A stretch of DNA of 64,000 bases from Myxococcota bacterium (lineage in GTDB: Bacteria > Myxococcota_A > UBA796 > CAJQPC01). The notes beneath the pieces were generated by a model. It was not told the DNA's origin, did no database searches, and saw only the letters and a program-made list of their open reading frames with translations. Made by a program: the position numbers and the translations under genes. The stretch spans positions 1-64,000 of the forward strand of contig DASCPX010000240.1 in the NCBI GenBank assembly GCA_036012755.1, read 5' to 3'. Of the stretch, positions 31,590 to 47,888 are shown piece after piece (the first letter of the stretch is position 1; every line of letters begins with the position of its first letter).

Positions 31590-32405
31590 ATGAGCGAGAT
31601 CCTCATGAAGGCGCTGCCCATAGGACTCGGCGCCCTCGTCGTCGGAAGCGGCCTCGGCTACGGGCTGCACGCCCTGCTCTCGGACCCGGTCGAGGTCATC
31701 GTCAGCGAGCCTCAGATCGTCAAGCAGGAGCTCACCGACGAGGAGCTCCTCGCCTTCTGCGACGACCAGATCAACCCGGAGCGGGTCAGGGCCGAGGACG
31801 CCCATGCCAAAGTCCTCGATCTCCAGGCCCAGCTCGACGCTCGGGAGGCCGAGCTCAAGTCGATGAAGTCCCAGGACGAAAAGGACGACGTCCGCCGGGC
31901 CGCTGCTGCGAAGAAGTGGAAGGAGATGGAGGTCGAGATCGAGGATCTCAAGACCCAGCTCGAGGTCGCCGAGATCGAGCGCGACGAGGCCCTGGTCGAG
32001 CTCAAGGAGACCGTGGTCGCCCTGGAGAAGCAGATCAAGGAGACCGAGAAGCAGCGCGTGCGCGCCGAGCGTTTCCGCGACGAGTCCCACCAGAACCTCT
32101 GGACCACCTTCCTGGCCGAGTCGAAGGTCTCGATCTGCGGCTGGGGCACCCCAGGCCGCCTCGACAAGTGCCAGGAGGCCGTGGAGTCCGCCCTGGTCAG
32201 CGAGGTCAAGGGCCCCTTCATGGAGTGCGTGGACGCCCAAGCAGCCACGCCGATCCTCCGCAAGGCCGAGCGCAAGGAAGACCTCCCCCGCTTCGCCGTG
32301 GAGCTCTCCGACGACAGCCGCTTCACGAAGCGCGGCTGGTACATCCAGTTCTGCGACCCGACGCTGCCGGAAGCGGATTTCCTGGATGATTTCGAGGACA
32401 TATAG
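31590..32405 (+). CDS. Hypothetical membrane-anchored coiled-coil protein
   Basis: N-terminal TM, long E/K-rich heptads, Cys-containing C-domain; GGAG RBS. Confidence 0.75.
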   Translation: MSEILMKALPIGLGALVVGSGLGYGLHALLSDPVEVIVSEPQIVKQELTDEELLAFCDDQINPERVRAEDAHAKVLDLQAQLDAREAELKSMKSQDEKDDVRRAAAAKKWKEMEVEIEDLKTQLEVAEIERDEALVELKETVVALEKQIKETEKQRVRAERFRDESHQNLWTTFLAESKVSICGWGTPGRLDKCQEAVESALVSEVKGPFMECVDAQAATPILRKAERKEDLPRFAVELSDDSRFTKRGWYIQFCDPTLPEADFLDDFEDI

Positions 32406-32440
32406 GCCGACCGGCCGCCGCACCGGCCAGGACGGTGGGG

Positions 32441-32935
32441 TCAGAGCGCGCCGACCAGCGCCGTGAGGTTCCACACGAGGTAGTGGGGCAGGTTGAGCAG
32501 CCGGTAGGAGACCGCCTGGCCGGTCGTCGTCGACAACGAGAGCGCCTGGGTGCTCGGCGGGTTCGTGTCGCATCGGAGCGCCAGATCCAGGCCCTTGTCG
32601 CGCATGAACTGGTGCAGGCTCTTCATGGCCCCAGCCGCCCCGGCCTTGACCTCGACCGGGAGGATCCGGCCACCCACCTGGACCAGGAAGTCGATCTCCC
32701 CCGCTCGTCCACCGTGACGCTGCCAGTAGAAGACCTCTAGCCCGACCGGGGAAGGACCGACGGCCAGCCGGAGTTGTTGGGCGACCAGCTGGTCGGCCAG
32801 CACCTCGCGCTGGCTGCGGCTGCCGTACTTCGCGAAGTCCGCGCGGTAGGTGGCCACCAGGAACTCGGAGAAGCCCATCGGCTCGATGTGGCGGAAGGTC
32901 ACGCGACCGACGGGCATCGACAGGGCGTGGTCGGC
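32441..32935 (-). pseudogene. Remnant of an AAA_14/DUF4143 ATP-binding protein
   Basis: Family motifs (DHALSMPVGRV, TYRADFAKY, YWQR...EIDF...PVEVKAG..G.MKSLHQF) are juxtaposed in ~160 aa; P-loop domain is absent. Confidence 0.7.
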
Positions 32936-32991
32936 GAAGGGACCAGTACCCGCCGTGCCCGAGGGCTTCCAGCGCGGGTTAGCACCGCGTC

Positions 32992-33807
32992 GTGAACGCC
33001 CTCCGCAAACTCCTGGTCGCCCTCGTCGTCGCGACGCTCTGCGGCTGCGATGACGACGCCCAGGAGCGTGTGCGCCTCGTCACGACGACCTCTACCGAGG
33101 CCTCCGGCCTGGCGACCTGGCTGTTTCAGCCCTTCGAGGAGGAGTTCGACGTCCAGGTCCAGGTCGTGGCCGTGGGTACCGGACAGGCCCTGGAGCTGGG
33201 GCGGCGCGGCGACGCTGACCTCGTCGTCGTGCACGCTCGAGAGAGCGAGGACGAGTTCGTCGACGAGGGCTGGGGCATCGACCGCCGGGACCTGATGTGG
33301 AACGACTTCGTCGTGGTCGGGCCGGCAGACGATCCGGCCGGCGTGCGTGGACTGGCCGACGCGGACGGAGCATTCGCCAGGATCAAGGAGACCCGGGCCA
33401 GGTTCGTCTCCAGAGGTGACGACTCGGGGACCCACATGCGCGAGCGCTCGATCTGGAGACGGGCCGGAGGACACCTCGACGACCCCAGCGAGTACCTCGA
33501 GGCAGGCCAAGGCATGGGGAGCTGCCTCCTGCTGGCCGACCAGAGGCTGGCCTACCTCCTGACCGATCGGGGCACCTGGCTGGCCTTCCGATCGAAGGTC
33601 GGACTCGAGGCCCTCGTCGAGGGCGACCCGGCGCTCCGAAACCCCTACGGCATCATCCTCGTCAACCCGGAGCGCCACCCCCACGTCAACGCGGAGGCCG
33701 CCCTGGCACTGCGCGACTGGCTGGTCTCACCGGCAGGCCAGGCGCGGATCGGGGCCTACGAGATCGACGGCGAGGTGCTCTTCCATCCAGCCGAGGACGG
33801 CGCTTGA
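32992..33807 (+). CDS. tupA: Tungstate ABC transporter substrate-binding lipoprotein
   Basis: TTTS tungstate-selectivity motif, VAVGTGQAL, FVSRGDDSGTH, NPY. Confidence 0.93.
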   Translation: MNALRKLLVALVVATLCGCDDDAQERVRLVTTTSTEASGLATWLFQPFEEEFDVQVQVVAVGTGQALELGRRGDADLVVVHARESEDEFVDEGWGIDRRDLMWNDFVVVGPADDPAGVRGLADADGAFARIKETRARFVSRGDDSGTHMRERSIWRRAGGHLDDPSEYLEAGQGMGSCLLLADQRLAYLLTDRGTWLAFRSKVGLEALVEGDPALRNPYGIILVNPERHPHVNAEAALALRDWLVSPAGQARIGAYEIDGEVLFHPAEDGA

Positions 33808-34499
33808 CCTACCTCTTCGATGGGGTCGCGGAGGCGCTGCGCCTCGTGGTGATCGGGGACCCAGAGGTGCTCCACGCCGCCTGGGTCTCGCTGACCTGCA
33901 CGCTGACAGCCGTCAGCCTGGCTGCGGTCATCGCCGTGCCGTGGGGCGCCTGGCTCGGGCTCTACCGCCCCCGGACCCACGGGGTCCAGGTCTTCTTCCT
34001 CCGCCTCGGCATGTCCATGCCCACCGTGCTGATCGGCCTGCTCGTCTTCGGGCTGCTCAGCCGGCAGGGGCTGCTCGGGAGCCTGGACCTCCTCTACACC
34101 CGGACCGCCATCATCACGGGCGAGGTCCTTCTGGCCGTGCCCCTGATCGGCAGCCTTGCGCACGGGCTCGCGGCGGGGCTGGACCGGCGGGTCGTCGACA
34201 CGGCGCTCACCCTCGGCGCCAGCCGCCCGGCCGCGCTGCGCAAGGTCCTGGGCGAGGTGCGCCCAGGTCTGGCCGCGATCACGCTGGCGGCATTCGGGCG
34301 CTGCTTCACCGAGCTCGGCATCGCCATCACCGTGGGCGGCAGCCTGCGCCTGTCGACCCGTACGTTGGCCTCGACGATCCAGCTGGAGCTCTCGCGGGGT
34401 GAGCTGGCCCGAGCGCTGGCTCCGGGCTTGATCCTCCTCGCCGTCGCAGCAGCAGCAGCGGTGGCCGTTCAGCGCCTTTCCAAGGAGAGCCACGCATGA
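33804..34499 (+). CDS. tupB: Tungstate ABC transporter permease
   Basis: Permease with LLSRQGLLG.LDLLYT and FGR..TELG motifs; overlaps the tupA stop. Confidence 0.9.
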   Translation: MTYLFDGVAEALRLVVIGDPEVLHAAWVSLTCTLTAVSLAAVIAVPWGAWLGLYRPRTHGVQVFFLRLGMSMPTVLIGLLVFGLLSRQGLLGSLDLLYTRTAIITGEVLLAVPLIGSLAHGLAAGLDRRVVDTALTLGASRPAALRKVLGEVRPGLAAITLAAFGRCFTELGIAITVGGSLRLSTRTLASTIQLELSRGELARALAPGLILLAVAAAAAVAVQRLSKESHA

Positions 34500-35098
34500 T
34501 CCATGTCGAGGGACTGTTGGTTCGCTTCGGCGCGGTGGTCGCCGTCGAGTTGCCCGGGCTCGTCGTCGGCGAGGGCGAGCGTGTCGGGATCGCCGGTCCC
34601 AACGGCAGCGGCAAGTCCACGCTGCTCCGAGTGCTGGCGGGCCTGCAGGCCCCCACCGCGGGCCACCTCAGCGCCGTGCCGGATGGGACCGTGCTCGTCC
34701 ACCAGCAGCCCTACCTGTTCCGCGGCACTGCCAGGAGCGAGGTCGCCTGGGCGCTCCGTCTCCACGAGCACCCGGCCGCAGAGGCCGACGCGCTGCTCGA
34801 GACGATGGGCGCGTCGCACCTCGCCCACCGCTCCACGAGGGAGCTCTCCGGCGGCGAGCGCCAGCGCGTTGCCCTCGCCCGGGCGCTGGCCACTCGACCG
34901 CGGCTCCTGCTACTCGACGAGCCCTTCGCGGCCCTCGACGACCAGGGCATCGAGCGCATCGCCAAGGCCCTCGACGACTTCGAAGGGACCCTGGTCGTGG
35001 CAGCGCCGATCCTGGAGTGGGTGCGCCTGGATCGCGTCCTGCGACTGGGCCAGCGTCAGTCGACCGTCCGCACGCTCCCGGTCCGCACCACGTCGTAG
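34496..35098 (+). CDS. tupC: Tungstate ABC transporter ATP-binding protein
   Basis: GPNGSGKST, LSGGERQR, LLLDEP; third gene of the operon. Confidence 0.85.
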   Translation: MIHVEGLLVRFGAVVAVELPGLVVGEGERVGIAGPNGSGKSTLLRVLAGLQAPTAGHLSAVPDGTVLVHQQPYLFRGTARSEVAWALRLHEHPAAEADALLETMGASHLAHRSTRELSGGERQRVALARALATRPRLLLLDEPFAALDDQGIERIAKALDDFEGTLVVAAPILEWVRLDRVLRLGQRQSTVRTLPVRTTS

Positions 35099-37020
35099 CC
35101 GCCGAGCTCGACAGCGCCTCGCCTGAACTCCTCCGAGTCGATCACCTCGAGCACCTGCTGGACACCCTCGTGGTCGAGGAACTCGACCGGGATGACCAGC
35201 TCGTAGCGCTCGGTGGCCAAGGGCAGGAAGTCCAGTCCGAGGGCGCGTGCCGCGGACCTGACGCACAACCCGGCGTCAGCGGCACCGCTGGCTACGGCGA
35301 CGGCGACCGCCATGTGGGTGAACTCCTCCGTGCCGTAGCCCTGGATCCGGTTGGCCTCGATCGAGGCCTCTGCGAGCAGGTGGTCGAGGAGCACCCTGGT
35401 ACCCGAGCCGGCCTGGCGGTTGACGAAGTGGAGGTCCTGGCGAACCAGGTCATCCGGTCCCCGCACGCCCTTGGGGTTGCCGCGAGGCACGGCCAGGCCC
35501 TGCTCCCGGTCCACCAGGTGGACGAGCTGCACGGGGACATCCGCCAGGTAGCGACGCACGAAGCTCAGGTTGTAGGAGCCCTCTGATGGGTCGAGCAGGT
35601 GTGAGCCCGCCATGTGACAGGCCCCCTTTCGCAAGGCCCTGAGCCCGCCCAGGCTGCCCACGTGGCTGGAGGCGAGGGTCACGCCGACGCCCCGGGCGCG
35701 CAGCAGGTCGGCGATCAGATCGAGGCAGAGGTCGTGACTGCCCACGGCCACCACGTTCTGCTCGATCTCATGGAGCGGGCGGAGCAGCTCGACCCGCGCT
35801 GGCTCGTGAGCGTGCAGGCCCTCCAGGTCGGTCGGGATGCAGAGCATGCCGTCTGCCCGGGTGAAGCTCGTGACCGTGCCAGCTCCGCGTGGCAGCGGAG
35901 TGGCGACCAGACGCTCACCGACCCGGCCCAGCCGCACCCGCACGAACTCGTCCATGCCCAGCCTCGAGGCGATCTTCCGGGTCGGATGGGCCCGCACGAC
36001 CGGACGGCGAACTGGTGAGACCCCCTGCATGCGTGCCAGCAGCGGCGCCACGAGCTGCTCGAAGCAGAGGATCGCCGAGACCGGGTAGCCCGGCACACCG
36101 ACCACGGGCTTGCCCTCGACGTCTGCCAGCACGGTGGGCTTGCCAGGCATCATTGTCACGCCGTGGACGAGGACCTCGCCCACAGCCTCCGCCGCGGCCC
36201 GGGTGAAGTCGCGGGCGCCGGCGCTCGAACCGCCGATGACCAGCACGAGGTCATATGCGCGGACCGCATCGACGATGACCTCGCAGATGTGGTCCAGGTC
36301 GTCGGCGATGCAGGGGTGGAGGGTGTAGGCGCCACCTGCCTCCTCGACGAGCTTGCCGAGCATCGTGCCGTTGAACTCGATGATGGTGCCAGGCTGCAGG
36401 GCGTCGACCCGGACCTGGTCCGCCGACACGATCTCGGCTCCCGTCGGCACGATCAACACCCGGGGCTGGCGCAGCACCGGGACCTCGAAGATCCCTCCTG
36501 CCATCAGCGCACCCACGCAGGTCGGCCTCACCCGCCGGTGTCTCGCGAAGAGCATCTCGGTCGCGACGATGTCCTCGCCCACCCGGCGCACGTGCTGCCA
36601 GGGGAAGGCGGGAGCCTCGATGCGGATGGCGGCGTCGAGGACCTGGACGTGCTCGATCATGACGACCGCGTCGGTGCCCCCTGGGAGGACGTCCCCCGTG
36701 TTGACCGGGTGGGCTCGGAGACCGAGGGCAAGGTCCATCGGGCTGGCTTCGCTGGCGCCAAAGGTCTGCTCGGCCAGCACCGCGAAGCCGTCCATGGCGG
36801 CTCCGTGGTAGCTCGGAGCAGACACCCGAGCGTGGACAGCCTGGGCCAGCACTCGTCCAACCGCCTCTGCGACGGGCACCTCCTCGGCATCGAGGACAGC
36901 CGCGAAGCGCTCCGACAACAGGGCCCGCGCCTCGGCCAGCCCCGTCATGCGCAGGTAGACGTTGCGGCGATGGCCTCCGCAGGCCGGGGGAGAGTCGCGT
37001 CGTGGGTCGTGGTCGGTCAT
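35056..37020 (-). CDS. moeA: Molybdopterin/tungstopterin metal insertase MoeA fused to C-terminal periplasmic-binding-protein-like domain
   Basis: AMDGFAV, GSSAGARD, PGKP, PGYPVSA; PBP tail HVGSLGGL, NRQAGSGTR, EFTHMAVA. Confidence 0.92.
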   Translation of the reverse strand: MTDHDPRRDSPPACGGHRRNVYLRMTGLAEARALLSERFAAVLDAEEVPVAEAVGRVLAQAVHARVSAPSYHGAAMDGFAVLAEQTFGASEASPMDLALGLRAHPVNTGDVLPGGTDAVVMIEHVQVLDAAIRIEAPAFPWQHVRRVGEDIVATEMLFARHRRVRPTCVGALMAGGIFEVPVLRQPRVLIVPTGAEIVSADQVRVDALQPGTIIEFNGTMLGKLVEEAGGAYTLHPCIADDLDHICEVIVDAVRAYDLVLVIGGSSAGARDFTRAAAEAVGEVLVHGVTMMPGKPTVLADVEGKPVVGVPGYPVSAILCFEQLVAPLLARMQGVSPVRRPVVRAHPTRKIASRLGMDEFVRVRLGRVGERLVATPLPRGAGTVTSFTRADGMLCIPTDLEGLHAHEPARVELLRPLHEIEQNVVAVGSHDLCLDLIADLLRARGVGVTLASSHVGSLGGLRALRKGACHMAGSHLLDPSEGSYNLSFVRRYLADVPVQLVHLVDREQGLAVPRGNPKGVRGPDDLVRQDLHFVNRQAGSGTRVLLDHLLAEASIEANRIQGYGTEEFTHMAVAVAVASGAADAGLCVRSAARALGLDFLPLATERYELVIPVEFLDHEGVQQVLEVIDSEEFRRGAVELGGYDVVRTGSVRTVD

Positions 37021-38243
37021 CAGAACAGCAGCACGGAGACCTGCGCGCCCGCGTCCAGACCCTCCGTGTCCCGGTCGATGCGGACCAGGCCGTGGGCGCC
37101 GACCATGGTTCGGAGCAGTCCGGACCGACCCAGCACCGGCACCGCCCGCACGCTGTCCTGGCCCGGTTCCACGCGCACGCGCACGAAGTCCGTCCGCCCG
37201 TGGGCCGAGACGACGTTGCGGCTCAGGCGTGCAGAGACGCGGAGCCCGCCTGCCTGGTCCCCCCCACCGATGTGCTGCAGGAAAGGCTGCACCAGCACGC
37301 GGAAGACCACCATGGCCGAGGCCGCGTGTCCGGGCAGTCCCCAGACTGCCTTGTCACCCGTCCTCGAGAGGATCGTCGGCTTGCCCGGTCTGATGGCCAC
37401 GCCGTGCGCCAGCAGCTCGGCGTCGGGCAGAGCCTGGAGAACAGCCAGGGTCAGATCGCGGGTACCCACCGACGAACCGCCCGAGATCAGCAAGGTGTCG
37501 GCCTGCGCGAGCGCGGACAGACAGGTGCTCGAGAGCGACTCCAGCTCGTCGGGCACGATGCCCAGCTGGAGGGGACGCCCCCCGCACTGCGTCACGAGCG
37601 CCGCCAGCGTCGTGGAGTTCACGTCGCGCACCTGCCCCGGCCCCGGCTGGGTCTCCGGTGGGACGATCTCGTCGCCGGTGGACAGGATGGCCACGACCGG
37701 CCGTCGGAAGACCTCGACCTCGACCTGCCCGATGGCCGCGAGGAGGCCGGCCTCCTGGGCGCGGATCCGCTGGCCAGCCCTGAGCAGGACCTGGCCGGCG
37801 GCTGCGTCCTCGTCCGATGCGATCAGGTTGTCCCCCGGTGCCACTGGCCGGCTCACCTCGATGGTGCGGTCGTCCAGGTGCTCGGTGTGCTCGACCATCA
37901 CGACCGCGTCGGCCCCATCGGGCGCCATGCCGCCAGTCGGGATGGCCACGGCCTGGCCCCGCCCGACGGTGGCAGTGGCCACCTCCCCCATCTGCACCTC
38001 ACCCACCACATCGAGCAGGGCCGGAGCAGCCTCTGATGCGCCGAACGTGGACGCCGCGACCACAGCGAAGCCGTCCATCGTGGAGCGCCGGAAGCCCGGG
38101 AGGTCGGCCGGAGCCGTGATGTCCTCTGCCAGGTTCCGCCCGACCGCACCGGCAAGCCCGACGGCTTCTGTCCCGACGAGGCCGAAGCGCACGGCGAGGG
38201 CCCGTGCCTGCTCCAGGGAGACGACCTTGAAGAACTCCCTCAT
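37020..38243 (-). CDS. moeA: Gephyrin-like molybdopterin metal insertase MoeA (second paralog)
   Basis: STMDGFAV, ILSTGDE, ISGGSSVGTRD, IRPGKP, LPGH. Confidence 0.92.
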   Translation of the reverse strand: MREFFKVVSLEQARALAVRFGLVGTEAVGLAGAVGRNLAEDITAPADLPGFRRSTMDGFAVVAASTFGASEAAPALLDVVGEVQMGEVATATVGRGQAVAIPTGGMAPDGADAVVMVEHTEHLDDRTIEVSRPVAPGDNLIASDEDAAAGQVLLRAGQRIRAQEAGLLAAIGQVEVEVFRRPVVAILSTGDEIVPPETQPGPGQVRDVNSTTLAALVTQCGGRPLQLGIVPDELESLSSTCLSALAQADTLLISGGSSVGTRDLTLAVLQALPDAELLAHGVAIRPGKPTILSRTGDKAVWGLPGHAASAMVVFRVLVQPFLQHIGGGDQAGGLRVSARLSRNVVSAHGRTDFVRVRVEPGQDSVRAVPVLGRSGLLRTMVGAHGLVRIDRDTEGLDAGAQVSVLLF

Positions 38244-38313
38244 GTTGCGGGCCTATCCGGGCGCGGGGCTGCCTGCCCGGACCTCGCAGCCTCATCGCAA
38301 TAGGCTGTCGGGG

Positions 38314-39477
38314 ATGGGCCGGATGATCTACCTGGACAACAGCGCCACCTCCTTCCCCAAGCCCGAGGAGGTCTACACCTTCATGGATGGCTTCTGGCGC
38401 ACTCGCGGGGTGAATCCGGGGAGATCTGGATTCGATCTCGGCCGGGAAGCGGGGGCCTTCGTGGACGACACCCGAGCGCTGTTGACCGGGCTGTTCAACG
38501 GGACCGACCCAGACCGCCTCTGCTTCGGAAACAACGCCACCGACGCGCTGAACCTCGTGATCAACGGAGTGCTCGGCGAGGGAGACCACGTGGTCACCAC
38601 CAACCTCGAGCACAACTCCGTGCTGAGGCCGCTGGAGCACCTGAGGCGGAACAGGGGAGTCGAGGTCGACCACGTCCCCTGTGACGGCAACGGATTCGTC
38701 GATCCGGATGACATCGAGGGGTGCTTTCGGCCCAACACCCGCCTGGTCATCGTCAACCACGCGTCGAACGTCATCGGCACGATCCAGCCGATCAAGGAGA
38801 TCGGGGCCCGGACTCGGGCGGCGGGTATTGCCTTCGCCGTCGATGCATCACAGTCCGCAGGTGTCGTGCCGATCGACGTCGAAGAGATGAACGTGGACGT
38901 AGTGGTGTTCACGGGCCACAAGTCCCTGATGGGACCGACCGGGATCGGGGGGCTCTACGTCCGGGAGGGGATCGAGATCGAGCTGACCCGGGCGGGCGGG
39001 ACCGGGGTCCGCTCGGCCCAGAGGACCCACCTCGAGGAGTACCCGTACCGCCTCGAATACGGGACCATCAACCTGCTGGGCGTCGCCGGACTCAACGCTG
39101 GTGTGCGCTGGGTCCTCGACGAGGGGATCGACGACATCCACGAACGTGAGATGAAGCTGGTGACCAGGCTCCGAGATGGCGTGAGGGAGATCCCGGGCGT
39201 CACCACCTACTGCCAGGACGACCTGGCCAATCACATCGCCGTGTTCCTGTTCAACATCAACGGGTTCGAAGCAGCACAGACCTCGCCGCTGTTCGACGTC
39301 GACCACGAGATCGCGTGCCGGACCGGGCTCCACTGTGCCCCGCTCGTCCACGACCACCTCGGCACGACCGCGATCGGCGGCGCCGTCCGCTTCAGCCCCG
39401 GCCCCTTCACCACCGAAGCGCACATCGACTCCGCCATAGCTGCAATCGAGGACGTCGCGTCCATGAGGAACCCGTAG
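38314..39477 (+). CDS. Group II cysteine desulfurase / possible selenocysteine lyase (PLP, aminotransferase class V)
   Basis: YLDNSATS, EHNSV, DASQ, TGHK (PLP Lys), RTGLHCAP. Confidence 0.9.
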   Translation: MGRMIYLDNSATSFPKPEEVYTFMDGFWRTRGVNPGRSGFDLGREAGAFVDDTRALLTGLFNGTDPDRLCFGNNATDALNLVINGVLGEGDHVVTTNLEHNSVLRPLEHLRRNRGVEVDHVPCDGNGFVDPDDIEGCFRPNTRLVIVNHASNVIGTIQPIKEIGARTRAAGIAFAVDASQSAGVVPIDVEEMNVDVVVFTGHKSLMGPTGIGGLYVREGIEIELTRAGGTGVRSAQRTHLEEYPYRLEYGTINLLGVAGLNAGVRWVLDEGIDDIHEREMKLVTRLRDGVREIPGVTTYCQDDLANHIAVFLFNINGFEAAQTSPLFDVDHEIACRTGLHCAPLVHDHLGTTAIGGAVRFSPGPFTTEAHIDSAIAAIEDVASMRNP

Positions 39478-39795
39478 GTGCCGATCGTGGACTATCGAGG
39501 GACCCCGCTGGAGCTGAGCGAGGACGGCTTCCTGGCGAGCCCGCGACTGTGGGACGCCGAGGTCGCCCTGTTCATGGCGAAGCGTCAGGGCCTGGAAGAG
39601 CTCGGCAAGGACCACTGGGCGGTGCTCGACTACATCCGGGGCTTCTACGAAGAGCACGGACTGGCACCGCTGGTCCGCAAGATCTGCAGGACCACCGGGC
39701 TCAAGCTGAAGTACATCTACCAACTCTTCCCCGCTGGCCCGGCCATGGGCGCCTGCAAGGTGGCTGGCCTGCCCAACTCCGACGGCTGCGTCTGA
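39478..39795 (+). CDS. DsrC/TusE-family sulfur-relay protein with C-terminal CX10C
   Basis: EDGFL...W, HWAVLDYIR, LFPAGP..GACKVAGLPNSDGCV. Confidence 0.9.
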   Translation: MPIVDYRGTPLELSEDGFLASPRLWDAEVALFMAKRQGLEELGKDHWAVLDYIRGFYEEHGLAPLVRKICRTTGLKLKYIYQLFPAGPAMGACKVAGLPNSDGCV

Positions 39796-39817
39796 AAGAT
39801 CGACGCTGTGACTGGCT

Positions 39818-40681
39818 TCAGGCCTTCTTGCTCTTCTTGACGACGACCCGCTGTGCCTCTGGGATGGGAGGAGGAATGGGCTCTCCGGAGATCTTCCTCA
39901 CCGCGCCGATCTTGGGGGGGCAGGCGTAGAAGCACGTGCCGCAGTGCGTGCACTGCTCCTGGTCGATGATGTGGATGGTCTTCAGCTCGCCGTCGATGGC
40001 CTTGACCGGACACTTCTTGAAGCAGATCAGACAGCCCACGCACATCTCGGGCTCGATGTGGTAGGCGGGGAGCTCCTCGGCAGTGGAGACCGGGTCAGCG
40101 ACGAACTGATCGAGCAGTCCCAGCACCTTCGGCGAGGCATAGAGCTTGTCGTAGGCCGCCTCCGACTTGACACGAACCTGCAGCTTCTCCCTGACCAGGA
40201 TCTTCAGCTGGGGGACCATCTGGTAGACGGACTCGAGCTCTGTCTTCAGCGACTCCGGGTCGAGGCCCTCGCTGGAACCCAGGGGGCCCAGGGCGTCGAG
40301 CTCGTCGACGAAGTCGTCCATCACCTCGGCGAAGCGGTTGCCCTCTGAGGCAGCCACCCACTCGAGCCGCAGCCTGTTCGGGTGGAGCCCGATGCGCTGC
40401 ATCAGGTTCTTGAGCAGGTACATGTTGCCAAGGGCGTCGTAGTTCCCCTCTGTGATGTAGTGGCACTCTCCGGGCCAGCACCCCCCGACGAAGACGCCGT
40501 CGGCCCCGTTCAGGAAGGCCCGAAGCGGAAAGGACAGGTCCACCCTCCCCGTGCACATGAGCCGTATGATCTTGATCTCAGCCGCGTATTGTTGTCTGGA
40601 AACTCCAGCGAGGTCTGCCGCCGAGTACGCTCACCAGTTGCACAGAAAGCCGATGAGTCTGATCTTCGGTTTCAGTCCCAT
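39818..40681 (-). CDS. bamF: Selenocysteine-containing MvhD-like subunit of class II benzoyl-CoA reductase with C-terminal 2x[4Fe-4S] domain (287 aa, Sec17)
   Basis: GGAGG upstream of ATG 40681; reads FLCNW-UGA-AYSAADLAG...MCTGRVD...GGCWPGECHY in a single frame; last gene of the bam operon. Confidence 0.9.
40584..40633 (-). promoter_or_regulatory. In-frame UGA (40631-40633) and putative bacterial SECIS hairpin
   Basis: mRNA UGA GCGUA...CUGGA-GUU-UCCAG...UACGC: G-starting apical loop 27 nt after UGA, with lower GCGUA/UACGC pairing. Confidence 0.7.
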
Positions 40682-40691
40682 GTTGCCCTCC

Positions 40692-43600
40692 TCAGGTCTC
40701 TCTGGTTTCTGGAAACGCGGCGTCGATCTGCCCGAAGATCGCCTCGTCCGTGTAGTGATCAAGCACCACCGCAGTGGTCGGGCACTTCGTACAGCAGAGG
40801 CCGTCCCCCTTGCAGAGGACCGGGTTGACCTCGGCCTTCTTCCCATGGGGAGTGTTGCGCATCTGGATCGCCCCGTAGGTACACGCCGTGACGCAGGCCC
40901 CGCAAGCGATACAGTCGGCCTCGATCACCCTGCACACCGAGCCGGACGCGGTCACCGTGTCCTGAGAGAGCAGGCTGGACGCCCGACCCGCAGCGCCGAG
41001 CGCGGAGCTCACCGTCTCCGAGAGGTGCTTGGGATAGTGCGCGGCGCCACAGAGGAAGACCCCGTCGGCGGCGGAGTCCACCGGCCTCAGCTTGACGTGG
41101 GCCTCCTGGAGGAAGCCGTCCGGGTTCTTGGCCACCTTGTACAGGCGGGCCGCCTCGTCGCTGCCTGCTGAGGGCACCACTGCCGCAGAGAGGACCAGGA
41201 CGTCGGCGTCCAGCGCGAGCCTCTGGCCCAGGATGGGGTCCGGGACGGTCACCCGCAACACCGGCCTGCCATCCTCCACGATCGCCTCCACCTCTGGCTG
41301 GTCGGAGGCCTCGAAGCGCACGAACCTCACCCCCTCGCCTGCCGCCTCGCGGTAGGAGTCCTCGCCGAAACCGTAGGTCCTCATGTCTCGGAAGAGGATG
41401 GTGACCTCCACGCCGACCTTCGCGAGCGACAGCGCGTTCTTCACGGCGTGGTTGCAGCAGACGCGAGCACAGTAGCTCCTGTCCTCGCGCCTGCACCCGA
41501 CACACTGGATCATCACCAGTGAGCTGGCGTCGGCGAGCCGCTGTCCCCCGCGCTGGAGCTCTTCCTCGAGCTCGAGCTGGGTCCACACGCGGTCGTGTCG
41601 TCCGTAGAGGTACTCGGTAGGCACGTACTCCGCGGCGCCGGTGGCGAGGATGACGGCTCCGTGCTCGACGCGCTTGACCCTGCCCTCGGACGAGATCGTC
41701 GTGACGAAGTTGCCGACATAGCCGGAGACGTCCGTGATGGTCGCGCCATGCGAGACCTGGATCAACCGGTGGCGGTAGACCTTGCCGACGAGATGGCGAA
41801 GCGTCGCCCGGACGTCCATGCCGTCCAGGGTGGATGAGATCCTCCGCGCCATTCCGCCGAGCTCCGCGTCTCTCTCCACCAGGGCGACCTCGAAGCCCTG
41901 GTCGGCCAGGTTCAGGGCAGCGGTCATGCCCGCCAGGCCGCCCCCGACCACCAGGGCCCGCTTGTTGACTGGCAGGTCGAACTCCCGGAGGGGCTGGAGC
42001 TGAGCCGTGCGGGCGACGGACATGCGAACGATGTCCTTTGCCTTCGCGGTGGCTTCCTCCTTCTGCTTGGAGTGCACCCAGGAGCAGTGCTCCCGGATGT
42101 TGGCCATGTCGAAGAAGTACTGGTTGATGCCCCCTTCCCGCAGGGTGTCCCTGAACAGCGGCTCGTGGGTCCTGGGCGTGCAGGCGGCGACGACCACGCG
42201 GTTGAGGCCCTTGTCCCGGATGGTGTTCGAGATCTGCGCAGCCGCGTCCGTGGAGCAGATGAACAGGCCCTCCTCGGCGTGGGCCACGTTGTCGAGGGTC
42301 TCGGCGTACTCGACCAGCGACGGGATGTTCACGACCCGCCCGATGTTGGCGCCACAGTGACACGCGAAGACCCCGACGCGGACCTCCTCCTCCGAGACAT
42401 CCCGCTCCGGTGGGTAGATGCGCTCCTTGGCCATCTTGCCGCGGCGGTAGGTCAGCAGATCGGCGGCGAGGGCGCCGGCCCCGCTGGCAGTCGTGACCGC
42501 CTCCGGGATGTCCATCGGCCCCTGGAAGGCCCCGCTGACATAGACGCCGCGGCGCGTGGTCTCCATTGGGCTGGCAGGGTTCGTCTTGCAGAAGTCGTGC
42601 TCGTCCAGCTCGATGTCGAACTGATCGGCGAGCCGCCTCGCATCGGCGGGGGCCTCCAGCCCGATCCCGAGGACCACGAGGTCGAACTCCTCTTCCTTCA
42701 CGCCATCGACCGTGGCGTAGCGGATGGTCACGTTCTTCGTCGACGGGATCTCCCTCCCGATCGAGACGTAGCTCCGGATGAACTCGACCCCCGGGAGCTT
42801 CTCTGCGCGCTGGTAGAAGCGCTCGAAGTCCTTGCCGTAGGAGCGGATGTCGTTGTGGAAGATCGTCGCCTGGGTGTCGGCGGAGTGGTCCTTGGCCAGG
42901 ATCACCTGCTTCTGGATGTAGGAGCAGCAGACCGATGAGCAGTAGCTGTTCCCGCCGTCGTTGACCTGTCGGGATCCGACACAGTGGATCCAGGCGATCT
43001 TGTGGGGATGGGCGCCGTCAGAGGGGCGCAGGATCTCGCCTTCATGGGGACCCGTCGCGCACATCAGCCGCTCGAAGTCGAGGCTGGTCACCACGTTCTC
43101 GATCGAGCCATAGCCGTAGTCGCCACGCACCCTGGGATCGAAGGGAGAGAACCCGGGGCTCAGGATGATCGCGCCGACGTTGATCTCCTGGATCTGCGCC
43201 AACTGGTTGAGATCGATGGCGTTGTTCTTGCAGACACCCACGCAGATGGAGCACTTCTCGTCCTCCAGGTACAGGCACCGCTCGTCGATGTAGGGGACCA
43301 GCGGGACCGCCTGGGAGAAGTAGATGTGGATGGCCTTGTTGTCAGACAGATCCTGGTTGAAGGGGTCCTTGATGTTGACCGGACAGTACTCCGTACAGAT
43401 AGTGCAACCTGTGCAGAGGTCTTCGTCGACGTACCTGGCCTTCCGGTTGAGCGTGACGGTGAAGTCGCCAGCCTGACCCTCGACCCGATCCACCTCTGTG
43501 TAGGTCAGGATCTCGATGTTGGGGTGACGGTCACACTCGATGAACTTGGGTGACTCGATGCACATCGAGCAGTCGTTGGTCGGGAAGGTCTTGTCCAGCT

Positions 43601-43745
43601 GCGCCATCTTGCCGCCGATCGTCGGCGCCTTCTCGACGAGGAAGACCTTGTACCCGGCGGTGCCGAGATCGAGGGCGGCCTGGATTCCGCTGATCCCGCC
43701 TCCAACGACCATGACGTCGCCGAAGCTGGCGCCCGCACTGTTCAT
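40692..43745 (-). CDS. bamE: HdrA-like flavo-iron-sulfur subunit of class II benzoyl-CoA reductase
   Basis: VVGGGISG, MAQLDKTFPTNDC, CVGSR..YCSSVCC, AACTPRTHE, NIREHCSW, second GGGLAG FAD domain, ferredoxin motifs. Confidence 0.9.
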   Translation of the reverse strand: MNSAGASFGDVMVVGGGISGIQAALDLGTAGYKVFLVEKAPTIGGKMAQLDKTFPTNDCSMCIESPKFIECDRHPNIEILTYTEVDRVEGQAGDFTVTLNRKARYVDEDLCTGCTICTEYCPVNIKDPFNQDLSDNKAIHIYFSQAVPLVPYIDERCLYLEDEKCSICVGVCKNNAIDLNQLAQIQEINVGAIILSPGFSPFDPRVRGDYGYGSIENVVTSLDFERLMCATGPHEGEILRPSDGAHPHKIAWIHCVGSRQVNDGGNSYCSSVCCSYIQKQVILAKDHSADTQATIFHNDIRSYGKDFERFYQRAEKLPGVEFIRSYVSIGREIPSTKNVTIRYATVDGVKEEEFDLVVLGIGLEAPADARRLADQFDIELDEHDFCKTNPASPMETTRRGVYVSGAFQGPMDIPEAVTTASGAGALAADLLTYRRGKMAKERIYPPERDVSEEEVRVGVFACHCGANIGRVVNIPSLVEYAETLDNVAHAEEGLFICSTDAAAQISNTIRDKGLNRVVVAACTPRTHEPLFRDTLREGGINQYFFDMANIREHCSWVHSKQKEEATAKAKDIVRMSVARTAQLQPLREFDLPVNKRALVVGGGLAGMTAALNLADQGFEVALVERDAELGGMARRISSTLDGMDVRATLRHLVGKVYRHRLIQVSHGATITDVSGYVGNFVTTISSEGRVKRVEHGAVILATGAAEYVPTEYLYGRHDRVWTQLELEEELQRGGQRLADASSLVMIQCVGCRREDRSYCARVCCNHAVKNALSLAKVGVEVTILFRDMRTYGFGEDSYREAAGEGVRFVRFEASDQPEVEAIVEDGRPVLRVTVPDPILGQRLALDADVLVLSAAVVPSAGSDEAARLYKVAKNPDGFLQEAHVKLRPVDSAADGVFLCGAAHYPKHLSETVSSALGAAGRASSLLSQDTVTASGSVCRVIEADCIACGACVTACTYGAIQMRNTPHGKKAEVNPVLCKGDGLCCTKCPTTAVVLDHYTDEAIFGQIDAAFPETRET

Positions 43746-44905
43746 GGCGTCCCCTCGCTCACCGACTCCCAGAGGACCTCCGCCAGGTCCTTGATCTCCA
43801 TGGTCTGGCCGTCTTCCAGGGACAACCTGCTGTCCTCGAAGTTGCTGATGCAGTAGGGGCAGGAGGTGACCAGCACCTCGGCGCCCGCGTCCACGGCCTG
43901 CTCCAGCCTGAGGTCGGAGAACCTCTCCCCCTTGGGGGTCTCCATCCAGATCCTGCCGCCTCCACCCCCGCAGCACAGGCTCTCTTCCCGGTTGTCCGCC
44001 ATCTCCGCCAGCTCCAGCCCCGACAGTCTCCGGAGGAGCTCCCTGGGCGGATCGTAGATGCCGTTGTGTCGGCCGAGGTAGCAGGGATCGTGGTAGGTGA
44101 CCTTCTTGTCGAAGGCGCCGAGTTCCAGTCGTCCCTCTTCGACCAACCGAGACAACAGCTCGGTGAGGTGGACCACCTCGAAACTCACCATGAACTCTGG
44201 ATACTCGTTCGCGAAGGTGTGGTAGCAGTGGGGCGAGGAGACCAGGATCTTCTTCACGCCGTGGTCGATGAAGGTCTTGATGTTCTCTCGGGCCAGCTTC
44301 TTGAAGACCTCTTCGTCGCCGGTCTTGCGGATGCTCTCGCCACAGCAGCTCTCTTTGGCACCCAGGACGCCGAAGTCCACGCCGGCCCGCTTCAGGAGCT
44401 CGGCGGTGGCGCGGGCGACCTGCTGCAGTCTCGGGTCGAAGCTGTAGTAGCAACCGACGAAGTACAGGAACTCCATCCCCTCGGCGTAGGGCTTCAACCC
44501 CAGACCGGCGGCCCAGTCGGTCCGCTCGTCCCTCTCCGCGCCCAGGGGGTTGCCATCGGAACGAAGGCTCGCGGCGGCGGAGCACACTCCACGAACAGAT
44601 GTGGGGAAGACCTCGTAGGAGGTAGCGATCCGGCGCAGGGAGACACCCACCTCGACCTGCTGCACGCCCCGAGGACACTTCGAAGGGCAGAGGCCGCAGG
44701 TGGTGCAGCGCCACATGTCCTCGAGCTCGATCTCGGGCAGGCCGAAGGTGGCCTGCCGGATGATCTTGCGAATGCTGAAGGACCGCATCCTGTTCCAGGG
44801 GCAGACCACGTCACACTTCCCGCACTGGTAGCAGTACTTGAAGGCATCGCCGCCGGCGTCCTTGATCTCCTGGACGATCTCGGCGAAGGGGGTGACGGTC
44901 TCCAT
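43742..44905 (-). CDS. bamD: HdrC/HdrB-like Fe-S protein with CCG domains
   Basis: CYQCGKCDVVCP, CTTCGLCPSKCP, SCCGE, YHDPCYLGR, CCGGGGG, SCPYC. Confidence 0.9.
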   Translation of the reverse strand: METVTPFAEIVQEIKDAGGDAFKYCYQCGKCDVVCPWNRMRSFSIRKIIRQATFGLPEIELEDMWRCTTCGLCPSKCPRGVQQVEVGVSLRRIATSYEVFPTSVRGVCSAAASLRSDGNPLGAERDERTDWAAGLGLKPYAEGMEFLYFVGCYYSFDPRLQQVARATAELLKRAGVDFGVLGAKESCCGESIRKTGDEEVFKKLARENIKTFIDHGVKKILVSSPHCYHTFANEYPEFMVSFEVVHLTELLSRLVEEGRLELGAFDKKVTYHDPCYLGRHNGIYDPPRELLRRLSGLELAEMADNREESLCCGGGGGRIWMETPKGERFSDLRLEQAVDAGAEVLVTSCPYCISNFEDSRLSLEDGQTMEIKDLAEVLWESVSEGTP

Positions 44906-44910
44906 CAGGC

Positions 44911-45447
44911 TCAGGTCTTCTCCGCCAGCCTGCGCACGGCCTCGACCACCTTTGGCCAGCCGTGCTTGTTGGCGATCGCCTCGAGGTCGACGTCCAGATC
45001 CTCGAGGAGCGCTGCGGCGGGCACCTCTTCCTGGCGCTCCTCGTAAACCAGGGCATCTGCGAGGCACCACTGGACACACCAGGGCTCCTCGAGAGTGGGA
45101 TCCGACTCGCACATGTCGCACTTGAGCGGCAGATCGGAGTCCGGCTCCGTGAAGATGTCGCGGGATGGGCACGACGCGCGGCAGAAGGAGCACTCCTCGT
45201 AGCGCCTCCCGTCGATGATGTACTGGTCCCGACCAGCACACTCCGCGGCCGTGTACTCGCCCGCGTAGACGGGCAGGTAGACGTCCTCCAGCGGGTCACG
45301 AATCACGCGGATGCGGGCCCTGGCCGGGTTGACGCTGCTGAAGCGTGGGGTCGCGTGAAAGGACGAGCAGATCACCTCGCAGGCCCGACAGCCGTTGCAC
45401 TTGTCCACGTCGATCTTGATGGTCTTGACGGTCTTGGTCGGGGTCAC
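44911..45447 (-). CDS. bamC: [4Fe-4S] electron-transfer subunit of class II benzoyl-CoA reductase
   Basis: CNGCRACEVICS, YAGEYT..EC.GRD, ECSFCRASCPSRD, LPLKCDMC, matching BamC as recalled. Confidence 0.92.
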   Translation of the reverse strand: MTPTKTVKTIKIDVDKCNGCRACEVICSSFHATPRFSSVNPARARIRVIRDPLEDVYLPVYAGEYTAAECAGRDQYIIDGRRYEECSFCRASCPSRDIFTEPDSDLPLKCDMCESDPTLEEPWCVQWCLADALVYEERQEEVPAAALLEDLDVDLEAIANKHGWPKVVEAVRRLAEKT

Positions 45448-47441
45448 GTCGCGCCCGCCTCTTTCGGCCCGGGCGCCCCATCGGGGCCCAGGATCCCGCG
45501 CTCTTCGAACTCGTCGGCCACGTAGCCGAGGTCAAGCAGCTCCAGGGTCTCCCGGGTCGGCACGCCCTCGCTGTTCCAGCCCTTGAACTTGTAGTACTCG
45601 TCCAGGAGCTTCTCCTCGAGCTCGGGGAACCTCCGCCTCCAGTGATCATCGGGCGGCTTCTCGTCCGCCCTGGTCAGCCCTCTCCGGAGGTTGTTGGCCC
45701 TGACCAGGTTCCTGTTCCTGCGGGTGAGGTGCGTCAGGCTGTCTTCGTCCAGCTCCAACCCGGTGGCGCTGGAGATCAGCTCTGGCAGGTTGTGGATGTG
45801 GAATGGAGGCTTGAGCGGGAAGGAGGACAAGCCGGCGCACATGCCCGTGCTGTCGTCAATGTAGTGCATCTTCTCCTGCCAGTGCACGATCTCGCAGGTC
45901 GCCTCGATCGGGGGGTAGTGCGGGATGGACTTCTCTCCGCGCAGCTCCCAGTCCTCGAACCACTGCTTGAAGCGCTCGTCCGGGACGTGGGGCCACTCCT
46001 CCGTGAAGGCCTCGCGCTCTTCTCTGGTGCGGAAGGGCGCTTGTGGGAAGTTCCCCTCGATCTGCGTGATGCTGGCCTTCTCGCCCGTGCAGTACATCAA
46101 GAAGTAGATGGGGTTCAGCATCCCGAGCTTCAGCGGAAGCTGCTCGTGCTTGCGGATGTTGTTGTGGGCGTACTCGTCCGAGCCCTTGCCGATCTTCTCG
46201 GCCGCCCAGTGCGTGCCGTCGGCGAGGACGTCGCCGATGCCCTCGCGGCGCACGATCTTCTCGAGCAGGTAGTAGAAGCGCCCCTCGCTATCAGGGGGCA
46301 TCCCCGGGAAGTCGCTGTCGGTCAGGATGCCGTCCTCGAGCAGCTCGATGGCGAAGGCCATGGTCTGGGGGGCGGAGAACGCATCGACGCCGTGCTCCGT
46401 GGCCTTCTGGGCGATGCGCAGACCGAAGTCCAGGTCGGACATGGCGCCCATCGTGTAGGTGAGCTTGGAGAAGCACTTCATCATGTACGAGCAGAATCTC
46501 GTGTCGACGGCGATGGACGCTCCGCACTTCAGCGGGCAGTTGTGGCAACTCAACAGCCGCGTCCGCATGGTCTCCATCGTGTTGGTCCACTTCTCCGCCA
46601 CCTCCTCGGTCCAGAAGCCCTTCCGGCGGTGGCGCGCGTTGCCCCACACGAAGTTCTCCGTGTGCCACTGCTCGTCGTGGACGATCATCTCCTGGGGAGA
46701 GCCCAGCCCGGCCACGATGGGCATGACGCCGGGGATGGGGTTCTTCTCGCGGATCTTGATGTACTTCAGGGCCTCGTTGCAGAGCTTCAGGAACTCGGCC
46801 GGCCGAGCTATCTCGAGGTCACCCGTGCCCCGAACGGCGATGGCCTTGAGGTTCTTGTCTCCCATGACCGCGCCCATGCCGAGTCGGCTGGCGCTCGACC
46901 GTCCCTGCTCGATCGACGCGTAAAAGACCCTGTTCTCCCCGGCCAGGCCGATCGAGGCCACGGCGGCTCCGGGCTCGTCGAGCTCCTGCCGGATCAGCTC
47001 CGCGGTCTCCAGCGTCCCCAGACCCTTGAAGTGGGAGGCGTCGCGGATCTCCACCACGTCGTCCTTGATCCAGAGGTAGACCAGCTCCGGGGACTTGCCG
47101 CGAATGACCACCTTGTCGTAGCCGGCGTGCTTGAGCTCGGGCCCCCAGAAACCACCCATCATCGAGAACGCGAACAGCCGAGTCTGGGGCGAGATCGCAG
47201 AGACGACGGTGCGATTGGTGCCGGGAGCGGGGGTGCCCGCGAGGAGTCCGGTGCCGAAGACGAGCACGTTGTCCGGAGAGAAGGGCTCCACCTCCGGGGG
47301 AGTGCGATCCCACAGCAACCTGGCGTTGGTGCCCAGTCCCCCGAGGTGCAGCTCCGTGAGACGCGGGTCGGTCGCGACACGCTCGATGCTCCCGCGGGTG
47401 AGGTCGATCTCCAGGTTGAAGCCTGTCTCCGCGTACCTCAT
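45444..47441 (-). CDS. bamB: Tungstopterin active-site subunit of class II benzoyl-CoA reductase (AOR family)
   Basis: MRYAETG start, FSMMGGFW, GLGSPQEMIVHDEQWHTENF, SCHNCPLKC, YMMKCFSKLTY, SSFPLKPP: colinear with Geobacter BamB as recalled. Confidence 0.93.
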   Translation of the reverse strand: MRYAETGFNLEIDLTRGSIERVATDPRLTELHLGGLGTNARLLWDRTPPEVEPFSPDNVLVFGTGLLAGTPAPGTNRTVVSAISPQTRLFAFSMMGGFWGPELKHAGYDKVVIRGKSPELVYLWIKDDVVEIRDASHFKGLGTLETAELIRQELDEPGAAVASIGLAGENRVFYASIEQGRSSASRLGMGAVMGDKNLKAIAVRGTGDLEIARPAEFLKLCNEALKYIKIREKNPIPGVMPIVAGLGSPQEMIVHDEQWHTENFVWGNARHRRKGFWTEEVAEKWTNTMETMRTRLLSCHNCPLKCGASIAVDTRFCSYMMKCFSKLTYTMGAMSDLDFGLRIAQKATEHGVDAFSAPQTMAFAIELLEDGILTDSDFPGMPPDSEGRFYYLLEKIVRREGIGDVLADGTHWAAEKIGKGSDEYAHNNIRKHEQLPLKLGMLNPIYFLMYCTGEKASITQIEGNFPQAPFRTREEREAFTEEWPHVPDERFKQWFEDWELRGEKSIPHYPPIEATCEIVHWQEKMHYIDDSTGMCAGLSSFPLKPPFHIHNLPELISSATGLELDEDSLTHLTRRNRNLVRANNLRRGLTRADEKPPDDHWRRRFPELEEKLLDEYYKFKGWNSEGVPTRETLELLDLGYVADEFEERGILGPDGAPGPKEAGAT

Positions 47442-47527
47442 CGAGCGCTCCTGGCATCGCCGTCGGCGGGGGCGCTGCCCCCGGGAGAGGGTTCTATTCC
47501 ACCGCGCCCGCCTCTGCGGCGAGTCTA
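47442..47527 (-). promoter_or_regulatory. Putative bam operon -10 element (TAGACT), leader hairpin and AGGAG RBS
   Basis: Minus strand TAGACT at 47527-47522, GGGGGC-AGC-GCCCCC hairpin, AGGAG 6 nt before the ATG. Confidence 0.4.
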
Positions 47528-47634
47528 GTTCTCTTCGGCGCGAGTTCCGACGCAGTCGGGGCTGCGACGGGGTGAACGGCGGCGCGCGCCGAAGGCGCCG
47601 GTGGAAGGCGCGTCGCGACTTCCGCCGAGGGGCA

Positions 47635-47856
47635 CTACCCGAGTTCCGCCTCGACCGTGCCTCGCAGCTCGACCTCCTCGCTCCAGCCGCTGCCACCGTA
47701 CTCGACGGTGTCGTCCCACTCGAGCTCCAGGTCACCGTCTTCGGCCGTGCCGGAGAGCTCCGCCTCGTACTCTTCTGCGCCGTCGCGGTCCCACATCTCG
47801 TAGACGACCTCGACGCCAAGTGAAACGGCGGTCGAACCCCTGATGTCGAGTCTCAT
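47635..47856 (-). pseudogene. Short acidic ORF, likely the C-terminal remnant of a secreted protein
   Basis: Protein-like acidic beta-strand pattern, no signal peptide, begins next to the 47863 palindrome. Confidence 0.4.
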
Positions 47857-47859
47857 GTC

Positions 47860-47888
47860 TTGACTTGACGTGTCAAGTGGCGCATCCT
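47860..47888 (+). promoter_or_regulatory. Sigma70-like promoter (TTGACT-17-CATCCT) overlapped by palindrome ACTTGAC-GT-GTCAAGT
   Basis: Read directly; palindrome at 47863-47878. Confidence 0.5.

Follow-up and report, generated by a model that had tools for sequence, protein, structure and literature searches.

The closest described relatives of the system treated here are the class II benzoyl-CoA reductases (BCRs) encoded by bam genes, of which the Geobacter enzyme has been dissected furthest. Electron pairs reach the flavin of its BamE subunit and are split; one electron passes via BamC to the tungsten of BamB and the other via BamD to an electron-transferring flavoprotein (ETF), with potentials of about -620 mV for the conversion of benzoyl-CoA to the 1,5-dienoyl-CoA and about +16 mV for ETF (10.64898/2026.04.10.717634). 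Reduced ferredoxin lies at about -500 mV (PMC12096430). The C-terminal clusters of Geobacter BamH take electrons from reduced ferredoxin, and the winged-helix tail of BamF binds BamI; NADH alone reduced most of BamGHI, whereas the preprint leaves ferredoxin's role as a joint donor unsettled and could not measure coupled turnover (10.64898/2026.04.10.717634). Class II enzymes are assigned to strict anaerobes (PMC12096430; PMC5109826; 10.64898/2026.04.10.717634) and to anaerobes unable to afford ATP hydrolysis (reviews; 10.64898/2026.04.10.717634), and the available part of PMC13328260 lists only the eight-subunit form. The window analyzed here, 64,000 nucleotides of contig C240 (66.7 kb) from a Myxococcota genome (G000; 6.73 Mb, 95.95% complete, 1.62% contamination), carries at positions 32992 to 47441 a block of 12 genes that encodes a predicted five-subunit class II BCR together with the tungsten-specific part of its cofactor supply. 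The block was inserted at a conserved site of the chromosome, and its enzyme would be fed by ferredoxin and serve plain benzoyl-CoA in anoxic phases, beside a class I reductase of the MBR type.

One coupled operon on the minus strand encodes all five subunits, as the sequence-only reading of this DNA had described. It comprises bamB (45444..47441), encoding the tungstopterin catalytic subunit and the only AOR-family gene found in the genome; bamC (44911..45447), encoding an Fe-S subunit; bamD (43742..44905), encoding an HdrBC/HdrD-like high-potential output subunit with CCG and Fer4 domains; bamE (40692..43745), encoding a fused HdrA-type bifurcating flavoprotein; and a variant of bamF (39818..40681), encoding an MvhD-like adaptor. 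Residues 1 to 652 of BamB match Geobacter BamB (PDB 4z3w) with 1105 bits, compared to 211 bits for the best AOR. All five active-site residues (E251, H255, E257, H260, and C323) are kept, which bears out the E-x3-H-x-E-x2-H and MKC motifs named in that reading; in Geobacter BamB, Cys322 is the tungsten ligand, and Glu251, His255, Glu257, and His260 form the Zn/proton conduit (PMC12096430). BamE retains C59, C62, and K279, the counterparts of the Cys59-Cys62 disulfide and the bifurcation residue Lys280 of Geobacter (10.64898/2026.04.10.717634). In a FastTree phylogeny, the protein is nested within BamB, with YdhV and the AORs outside. The full-length match, the active-site residues, and this placement confirm a true class II BCR. 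The enzyme belongs to the BamB family without being of the eight-subunit complex type.

The bamF gene starts at 40681 and contains an in-frame TGA at 40633, in a C-N-W-U context, which is predicted to be a selenocysteine (Sec) codon. TGA also stands at this codon in 49 of the 51 related loci whose BamF start is readable; the remaining two (L021 and L043) have Cys in place of Sec. tRNA-Sec, selD, selA, and selB are all present in the genome. A hairpin after the UGA (-17.8 kcal/mol) was calculated without a shuffle control and is not used as evidence.

The feature that sets this enzyme apart, absent from the sequence-only reading, lies at the other end of BamF. Residues 1 to 196 align with ordinary BamF, and residues 197 to 285 show 53 to 57% identity with the last 90 residues of BamH (552 to 640) in three of four BamH proteins; the fourth shows 41% over a longer stretch. 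The winged-helix tail of BamF is thus swapped for the C-terminal 2x[4Fe-4S] ferredoxin-like domain of BamH. The best PDB matches of this domain are the C-terminal domains of HydB and NuoF, and an AlphaFold model of BamF (pLDDT 78.5) repeats the sequence result. The genes bamG, bamH, and bamI were not found in the block. BamH and BamI queries against the genome give best identities of 34 to 37%, all in an NAD-linked formate dehydrogenase, and BamG queries give no match; a location of BamGHI elsewhere in the genome (95.95% complete) was therefore dismissed with the queries used.

Among 84 loci examined, 21 show the BamF fusion without a NuoF-like gene nearby and 25 a short BamF followed by bamGH; the other 38, cut or frameshifted, are uninformative. 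Orthologs of BamH (64 to 70%) occur, among 34 genomes searched, only in those of the type with short BamF and bamGH. In a midpoint-rooted tree of the fused domain (∼90 residues), 22 fused BamF proteins form two groups, 6 from Myxococcota (support, 0.984) and the remaining 16, which include many Desulfobacterota proteins (0.999). The junction is 11 residues longer in the Myxococcota proteins than in the other 16. With two tree groups and distinct junctions, the BamF::BamH fusion appears to have arisen twice. Neither a BamF::BamH fusion lacking BamGHI nor class II BCR in Myxococcota is described in the literature searched, and the five-subunit Bam form is apparently undescribed in print; Anselmann 2019, the extended data of the preprint, and the supplements of PMC11704145 may cover them.

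By analogy with Geobacter, reduced ferredoxin would donate straight to the fused BamF domain. If it does so, the NADH confurcation step is skipped, and a single bifurcation would take place, at BamE, with ETF as the sink. The cost per ring would be four ferredoxin electrons instead of two plus NADH, i.e., twice the ferredoxin cost. With a mean acceptor potential of ∼-300 mV, ferredoxin alone would have more driving force than ferredoxin plus NADH. Ferredoxin could be supplied by the 2-oxoacid:ferredoxin oxidoreductases of the host (KorAB and PFOR) and by Rnf, and the high-potential electron may be taken up by three ETF pairs and an EMO-like protein.

The other seven genes of the block, all found where the sequence-only reading had placed them, are assigned to the cofactor supply. 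On the plus strand, tupA (32992..33807) encodes a tungstate-binding protein (PF12849; NF041772 with 189 bits, under the cut-off of 400) and is a single copy in the genome; it and tupB have the TupA and TupB NCBIfam models among their best matches. The permease gene tupB (33804..34499) lies under the cut-off for NF041773 (135 versus 320 bits) and above it for NF038017, and tupC (34496..35098) is a generic ABC ATPase gene by score, named from its position, with 74% identity to the gene at the same place in a second Myxococcota genome (G033). On the minus strand follow a gene for MoeA fused to a PBP-like domain (35056..37020; PRK14498 with 742 bits, above the cut-off of 534), a fusion found in 5 of 37 genomes searched, all 5 of which carry BamB, and a second moeA (37020..38243; MoeA_N, MoCF_biosynth, and MoeA_C). 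A cysteine desulfurase or Sec-lyase-like gene (38314..39477, plus strand) lies above the cut-off for TIGR01977 and under that for the SclA model (316 versus 525) and shows TGHK and RTGLHC motifs; the adjoining gene (39478..39795, plus strand) encodes a TusE/DsrC-family sulfur carrier with two C-terminal Cys residues (TIGR03342, above cut-off). The DsrC-like carrier was considered as a sign of sulfate reduction and discounted, as the genome contains no dsrA.

TupABC would import tungstate, the MoeA pair would insert it into a metallopterin made by the host, and the desulfurase/TusE pair may supply sulfur or recycle selenium. The block would thereby add what a molybdenum-using host lacks. It is not the self-sufficient cassette envisaged by the sequence-only reading: the genes moaA (C19), selA (C149), selB (C137), and selD (C70), moaD/E-like genes (C246, at motif level), tRNA-Sec (C61), the ETFs (C40, C43, and C182), and the had-oah-dch trio all lie on other contigs. 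The presence of selA in 20 of 21 genomes of the family indicates that the selenium machinery is older than the block. Scans of the block for promoters, terminators, sigma-54 sites, and FNR sites gave nothing above chance level.

Acquisition by insertion is borne out by the site in related genomes. The nearest conserved host genes on either side of the block (31590-32405, left; 47910-48836, right) are neighbors in relatives, and the same flank order without the block is found in four of five relatives (G002, G007, G008, and G018); none of the five has the block at this site. The flanking orthologs are 87 bases apart in G007. In G008 and G018, ∼0.8 kb separates the end of the left gene from the aligned C-terminal portion of the right one, and in G002 the flanking genes are ∼3 kb apart with a small regulator-like gene between them. 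In the fifth relative, G001, the left flank is followed by another gene and then by the end of the contig. The left edge is marked by the C-terminal remnant of a DUF4143 (ATPase-associated) gene (32441..32917, minus strand; PF13635, 35 bits), which is missing at this site from all five relatives examined and has a 77% match on another contig of G018. At the right edge lies a dispersed host repeat (47525..47640) with matches on 17 contigs, a depth spike, and a unitig break; it measures ∼115 bases, and some copies contain an internal insert of ∼85 bases. Beyond it, an acidic open reading frame of 73 amino acids without a family match (47635-47856, minus strand) is preceded by a near-perfect 14-base palindrome (47857-47875), and positions 47838-47880 are 88% conserved in G001 at the empty site. 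Further to the right, a gene for an FAD monooxygenase-like protein (51552-52980, minus strand; FAD_binding_3 and Rng_hyd_C) is divergent from purB and partly conserved in G002.

Read support was called for at both junctions and is found in full at only one. Of four sequencing runs, X9 and X10, with coverage of the stretch in short pieces only, were left out. Single mismatch-free unitigs, one from X1 (30001-41067) and one from X5 (30001-34843), cross the left junction; the two runs belong to different studies, and this DNA may itself derive from X1. Depth is even over the block and both flanks. No single unitig spans the right junction, where X1 and X5 both break at 47565/47593, inside the multicopy host repeat; this junction consequently rests on synteny and depth. 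In composition the block differs little from the genome, its tetranucleotide distance falling at the 89th percentile among 397 segments of equal size.

The same 12 genes occur as one block with different flanks in G033, which belongs to another family of the same order. There, tupABC is inverted, and bamF also adjoins the accessory genes. The two blocks share 64 to 85% protein identity and 75 to 79% DNA identity. The two MoeA proteins of G000 are 80 and 74% identical to those of G033, compared to 66 and 63% with the same-family genome G018, and the median for 30 syntenic orthologs within the genus is 63%. The closer relationship to G033 suggests that the block moved as a unit, and not recently. 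The full block is seen in G000 and G033 only; in G338, tupAB, the desulfurase gene, and the TusE gene are linked to bam, and the MoeA pair lies elsewhere.

Trees of BamB were built from the best 80 of more than 607 matches together with relatives, matches from the phylum, and 19 loci of the class Desulfuromonadia, which biases the sample to close relatives of the query; frameshifted loci and those with short matches were left out. FastTree places the window BamB in an eight-member Myxococcota clade (support, 1.0) inside a 32-member clade (1.0) composed mostly of Gemmatimonadota, Planctomycetota, and Myxococcota and apart from the main Desulfobacterota group. IQ-TREE, with 85 of the 111 sequences (26 Desulfobacterota-type sequences and outgroups being left out), gives the same nesting, with supports read as 99.9 and 100 from labels shifted by one node through rerooting. 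The window BamB is ∼69 to 73% identical to that of Desulfuromonadia. Five loci (L011, L013, L020, L026, and L029) carry Rickettsiales or Enterobacteriaceae labels on genomes of the host's class or phylum, and these labels are unreliable.

Among 60 relatives, 5 have a match of BamB grade (1 of the 21 family members and neither of the 2 genus members), and two of these matches are divergent. These divergent paralogs (L005 and L006, in G039 and G059; 57%) lack both active-site motifs and head bamBCD(EFGH) operons. Of 401 genomes sampled from the phylum, 17 contain BamB, which occurs in many other phyla as well, so that the "unexpected lineage" of the sequence-only reading stands as to the Myxococcota host but was overstated in degree. 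In the eight-member clade, dsrA was shown in no genome, a strong oxidase subunit I in all eight, and Oah in seven. A class I reductase is present in four (of the MBR type in G000 and of the Thauera type above cut-off in G033, G300, and G338), and NarG is above cut-off in two and partial in two more. Of the 24 further members of the 32-member clade, 23 were tested, and 18 have dsrA above cut-off. The members of these clades are kin and not independent, and their genomes are incomplete.

The host genome encodes a second ring-reducing system, likewise absent from the sequence-only reading. A class I operon on contig C71 (96151-116142; L122 and L123) contains a gene for a BzdR-like regulator and those of two short activases, followed by rnf and korAB; the left part of C71 is syntenic with G001 and G002. 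Its B subunit matches MbdO with 531 bits and its C subunit MbdN with 518 bits (PDB 9G87), compared to 93 and 71 bits for BzdO and BzdN, and both lie under the Thauera-type NCBIfam cut-offs (213 versus 487 and 250 versus 421). By these scores the reductase is of the MBR type. The same region encodes two unusual PFOR-related proteins of 1146 and 656 amino acids without an NCBIfam match at 1e-40. The prototype of the MBR type acts on methyl- and halobenzoates, according to the title of Tiedt 2018, which suggests a split of labor by substrate: the ATP-driven enzyme would probably serve substituted rings.

A search of the genome for the downstream pathway, proposed in the sequence-only reading, recovered had, oah, and dch side by side on contig C70 (337 kb), with Had (413 versus 339) and Oah (565 versus 464) above their cut-offs and Dch under; the trio would open the dienoyl-CoA. 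A benzoate-CoA ligase, sought in the same way, was not found above cut-off. Candidate enzymes for entry into benzoyl-CoA comprise three CoA transferases of class III together with IOR-like and Pad-like enzymes and two HCR-like ones, all under cut-off, and we infer that they could feed benzoyl-CoA from aromatic amino acids. Within the family, Oah is above cut-off only in G018, the one relative of 21 with BamB. Four other relatives, G001 (L168), G002 (L154), G007, and G021, have class I genes without BamB and no Oah above cut-off; had and dch lie beside the class I genes in L154 and L168.

Both classes also meet in other genomes. Two Desulfobacterota metagenome-assembled genomes (MAGs) with both are given in the available part of PMC11704145, which also lists two Myxococcota MAGs among aromatic degraders but names no reductase class for them. 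In a Gemmatimonadota genome (G063; L019/L156), MBR-type class I genes lie directly upstream of bamB on one contig. In the cultured isolate Geothermobacter hydrogeniphilus (G092; L066 and L147), a Thauera-type BcrB (818 bits) is encoded ∼13 kb from bamB, also on one contig; nothing on this pairing was found in the literature searched.

The Myxococcota affiliation of the host, proposed from the flanks, is upheld, since it falls in the same order as the Myxococcota genome G044 and the same phylum as the Bradymonadales genome G266, which also rules out a Desulfobacterota host; the MopE/FG-GAP repeats and Hanks kinases of the flanks are confirmed. The stretch is present in marine metagenomes; of the 16S rRNA gene of the host, a short fragment was recovered. 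No dsrA was found in G000 or in any of the 21 family genomes. The terminal oxidase sought at the suggestion of the sequence-only reading is present as an aa3-type operon, on the same contig as a NarG above cut-off; NarI and two NarK-like transporters are also found, and subunit I of the oxidase matches at full length in four of five relatives. Besides ACIII-like genes, 2-oxoglutarate dehydrogenase, and SodB, the host has hemN, a class II ribonucleotide reductase, PFOR, Rnf, KorAB, three ETF pairs, and the EMO-like protein. nrfA was not found with an Escherichia coli query, and no NosZ was seen at motif level, the single CuA motif of the genome being that of CoxB. The host would respire oxygen or nitrate and use the Bam enzyme for plain benzoyl-CoA when conditions turn anoxic.

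Further respiratory and redox genes were noted in the genome. A divergent heme-copper subunit and a small cytochrome c (C70:300928-302639; L101) lie 1.5 kb from had-oah-dch; a designation as norCB was set aside, as the heme-copper match is weak (45 bits), and the pair is left as NorB/NorC-like. An sHdr-like cluster (C43:94346-109720; L104), in a genome without dsrA, encodes a lipoate-binding protein, LipS1, lipoate ligase, TusA, DsrE2, ETF, and an EMO-like protein. Multiheme cytochrome clusters with up to nine CxxCH motifs (C27:346842-355273 and C190:16122-28946) possibly serve extracellular electron transfer.

Several results weigh against a ferredoxin-fed class II enzyme in a respiring host that divides its substrates with a class I enzyme. 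Ferredoxin-only input and the division of labor are both predictions from homology. Dch is the best model for its gene product but reaches 204 bits with a cut-off of 292, the best TIGR02262 match for the ligase reaches 216 with a cut-off of 375, and a TetR-like gene found upstream of bamB in five close loci is absent here. No oxygen-requiring markers were found with E. coli hemF, nrdB, paaA, katG, and cydA queries and an HPPD model, and heme-copper family matches occur in 42 of 50 BamB genomes, Desulfobacterota included, so that the aa3 oxidase is insufficient as proof of facultative life. This last pair of results, together with hemN, the class II ribonucleotide reductase, PFOR, Rnf, and the Sec enzymes, would fit a host that is in effect an anaerobe like Geobacter, with an oxidase that scavenges oxygen and only the phylum label new. 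G. metallireducens is cultivated on benzoate and nitrate (10.64898/2026.04.10.717634), and Geothermobacter (L066/G092), too, combines BamB with a class I B subunit above cut-off, NarG, and an oxidase. Such a host is unlikely but has to be reckoned with: the aa3 operon is common across a family in which BamB occurs in 1 of 21 genomes and dsrA in none; 2-oxoglutarate dehydrogenase, SodB, ACIII-like genes, and the FAD monooxygenase-like gene are present; and oxidases are given for nearly all genomes in the part available of a survey of Danish Myxococcota. It is quite improbable that the short complex is not ferredoxin-only and that the fused domain instead docks another NADH-linked module in place of BamGHI, either Rnf or the NuoF/NuoG-like formate dehydrogenase on contig C59. 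The genome does contain this Sec formate dehydrogenase with NuoF- and NuoG-like parts, and four related short-form genomes have HydB-like proteins with 48 to 49% identity to BamH. In Geobacter, however, the domain that is kept here is the acceptor for reduced ferredoxin and the tail that is lost is the binder of BamI (10.64898/2026.04.10.717634); in none of the 21 fused loci does the block have a linked partner of this kind, and G266 and G000 lack a close HydB-like protein.

The missing ligase and the lack of a regulator gene upstream of bamB could also mean that the block, though intact, is carried as a silent or seldom used passenger and that ring reduction is left to the MBR-type enzyme, whose operon has a BzdR-like regulator beside rnf and korAB. 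All 12 frames are intact, however, with GC contents at third codon positions of 0.88 to 0.92, as in host genes, and 75 to 79% DNA identity to the G033 copy with every frame kept indicates long selection. The relatives with class I genes and no BamB also lack an Oah above cut-off, and a passenger is accordingly given little credence. An artifact of assembly or binning is scarcely conceivable, although the right junction is not covered by one unitig, with the break of both X1 and X5 in the same place, and the block stands at the 89th percentile in tetranucleotide distance. A chimera is ruled out by the left-junction unitigs from two studies and the flanks adjoining in the same order in four relatives; depth is equal on both sides, the break coincides with the multicopy repeat, and the contamination figure of the bin is 1.62%. 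The ferredoxin-fed, inserted class II enzyme beside the MBR-type reductase thus stays the favored reading. A wider proposition, possible but on balance doubtful, is that a marine Myxococcota clade that respires oxygen and does not reduce sulfate independently evolved and horizontally spread the ferredoxin-only five-subunit enzyme and runs it beside class I, switched by oxygen, energy state, or substrate.

If this proposition were true, class II would be an enzyme of facultative aerobes, and the NADH confurcation module would be dispensable for biological Birch reduction. Class II in a genome with an aa3 oxidase, NarG, and class I blurs the textbook split between the classes. If the block is expressed, bamB would be no safe marker for sulfate-reducing, iron-reducing, or syntrophic degraders, and uncultured myxobacteria would share in anoxic aromatic turnover. 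The BamF fusion is a natural deletion experiment on the question of the ferredoxin/NADH donor, and a five-subunit enzyme with its own tungsten-insertion genes offers a simpler target for expression and assays.

Compared to the Bam[(BC)2DEFGHI]2 complex of G. metallireducens (BamBC, PDB 4Z3W), the operon shows BamB to BamF in the same order and shares the tungsten-ligand Cys, the Zn/proton residues, the C59/C62 pair and the bifurcation Lys of BamE, and the Sec of BamF. In contrast to Geobacter, BamG, BamH, and BamI are missing, the tail of BamF is the ferredoxin domain of BamH, and tup, moeA, desulfurase, and tusE genes are attached. The host, a Myxococcota, has a class I enzyme and no dsrA, and its BamB belongs to the separate 32-member clade. 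At 16 loci from Desulfobacterales and other groups (e.g., L082, L045, and L027), short BamBCDEF operons likewise lack adjacent bamGHI and have a BamF ending in the BamH-type 2x[4Fe-4S] domain. Their junction is 11 residues shorter and their domain falls in a separate clade, and this form is probably of separate origin. The C71 enzyme resembles MbdONPQ (PDB 9G87) in its reductase subunits, closest to MbdO and MbdN, and in its two short activases but differs in its BzdR-like regulator, rnf and korAB, had-oah-dch on another contig, and the class II enzyme in the same genome. Finally, the N-terminal part of BamF is like MvhD of the methanogen MvhD-HdrABC complex in sequence and fold; here, the donor would be ferredoxin, and the acceptors would be the benzene ring and ETF instead of ferredoxin and heterodisulfide.

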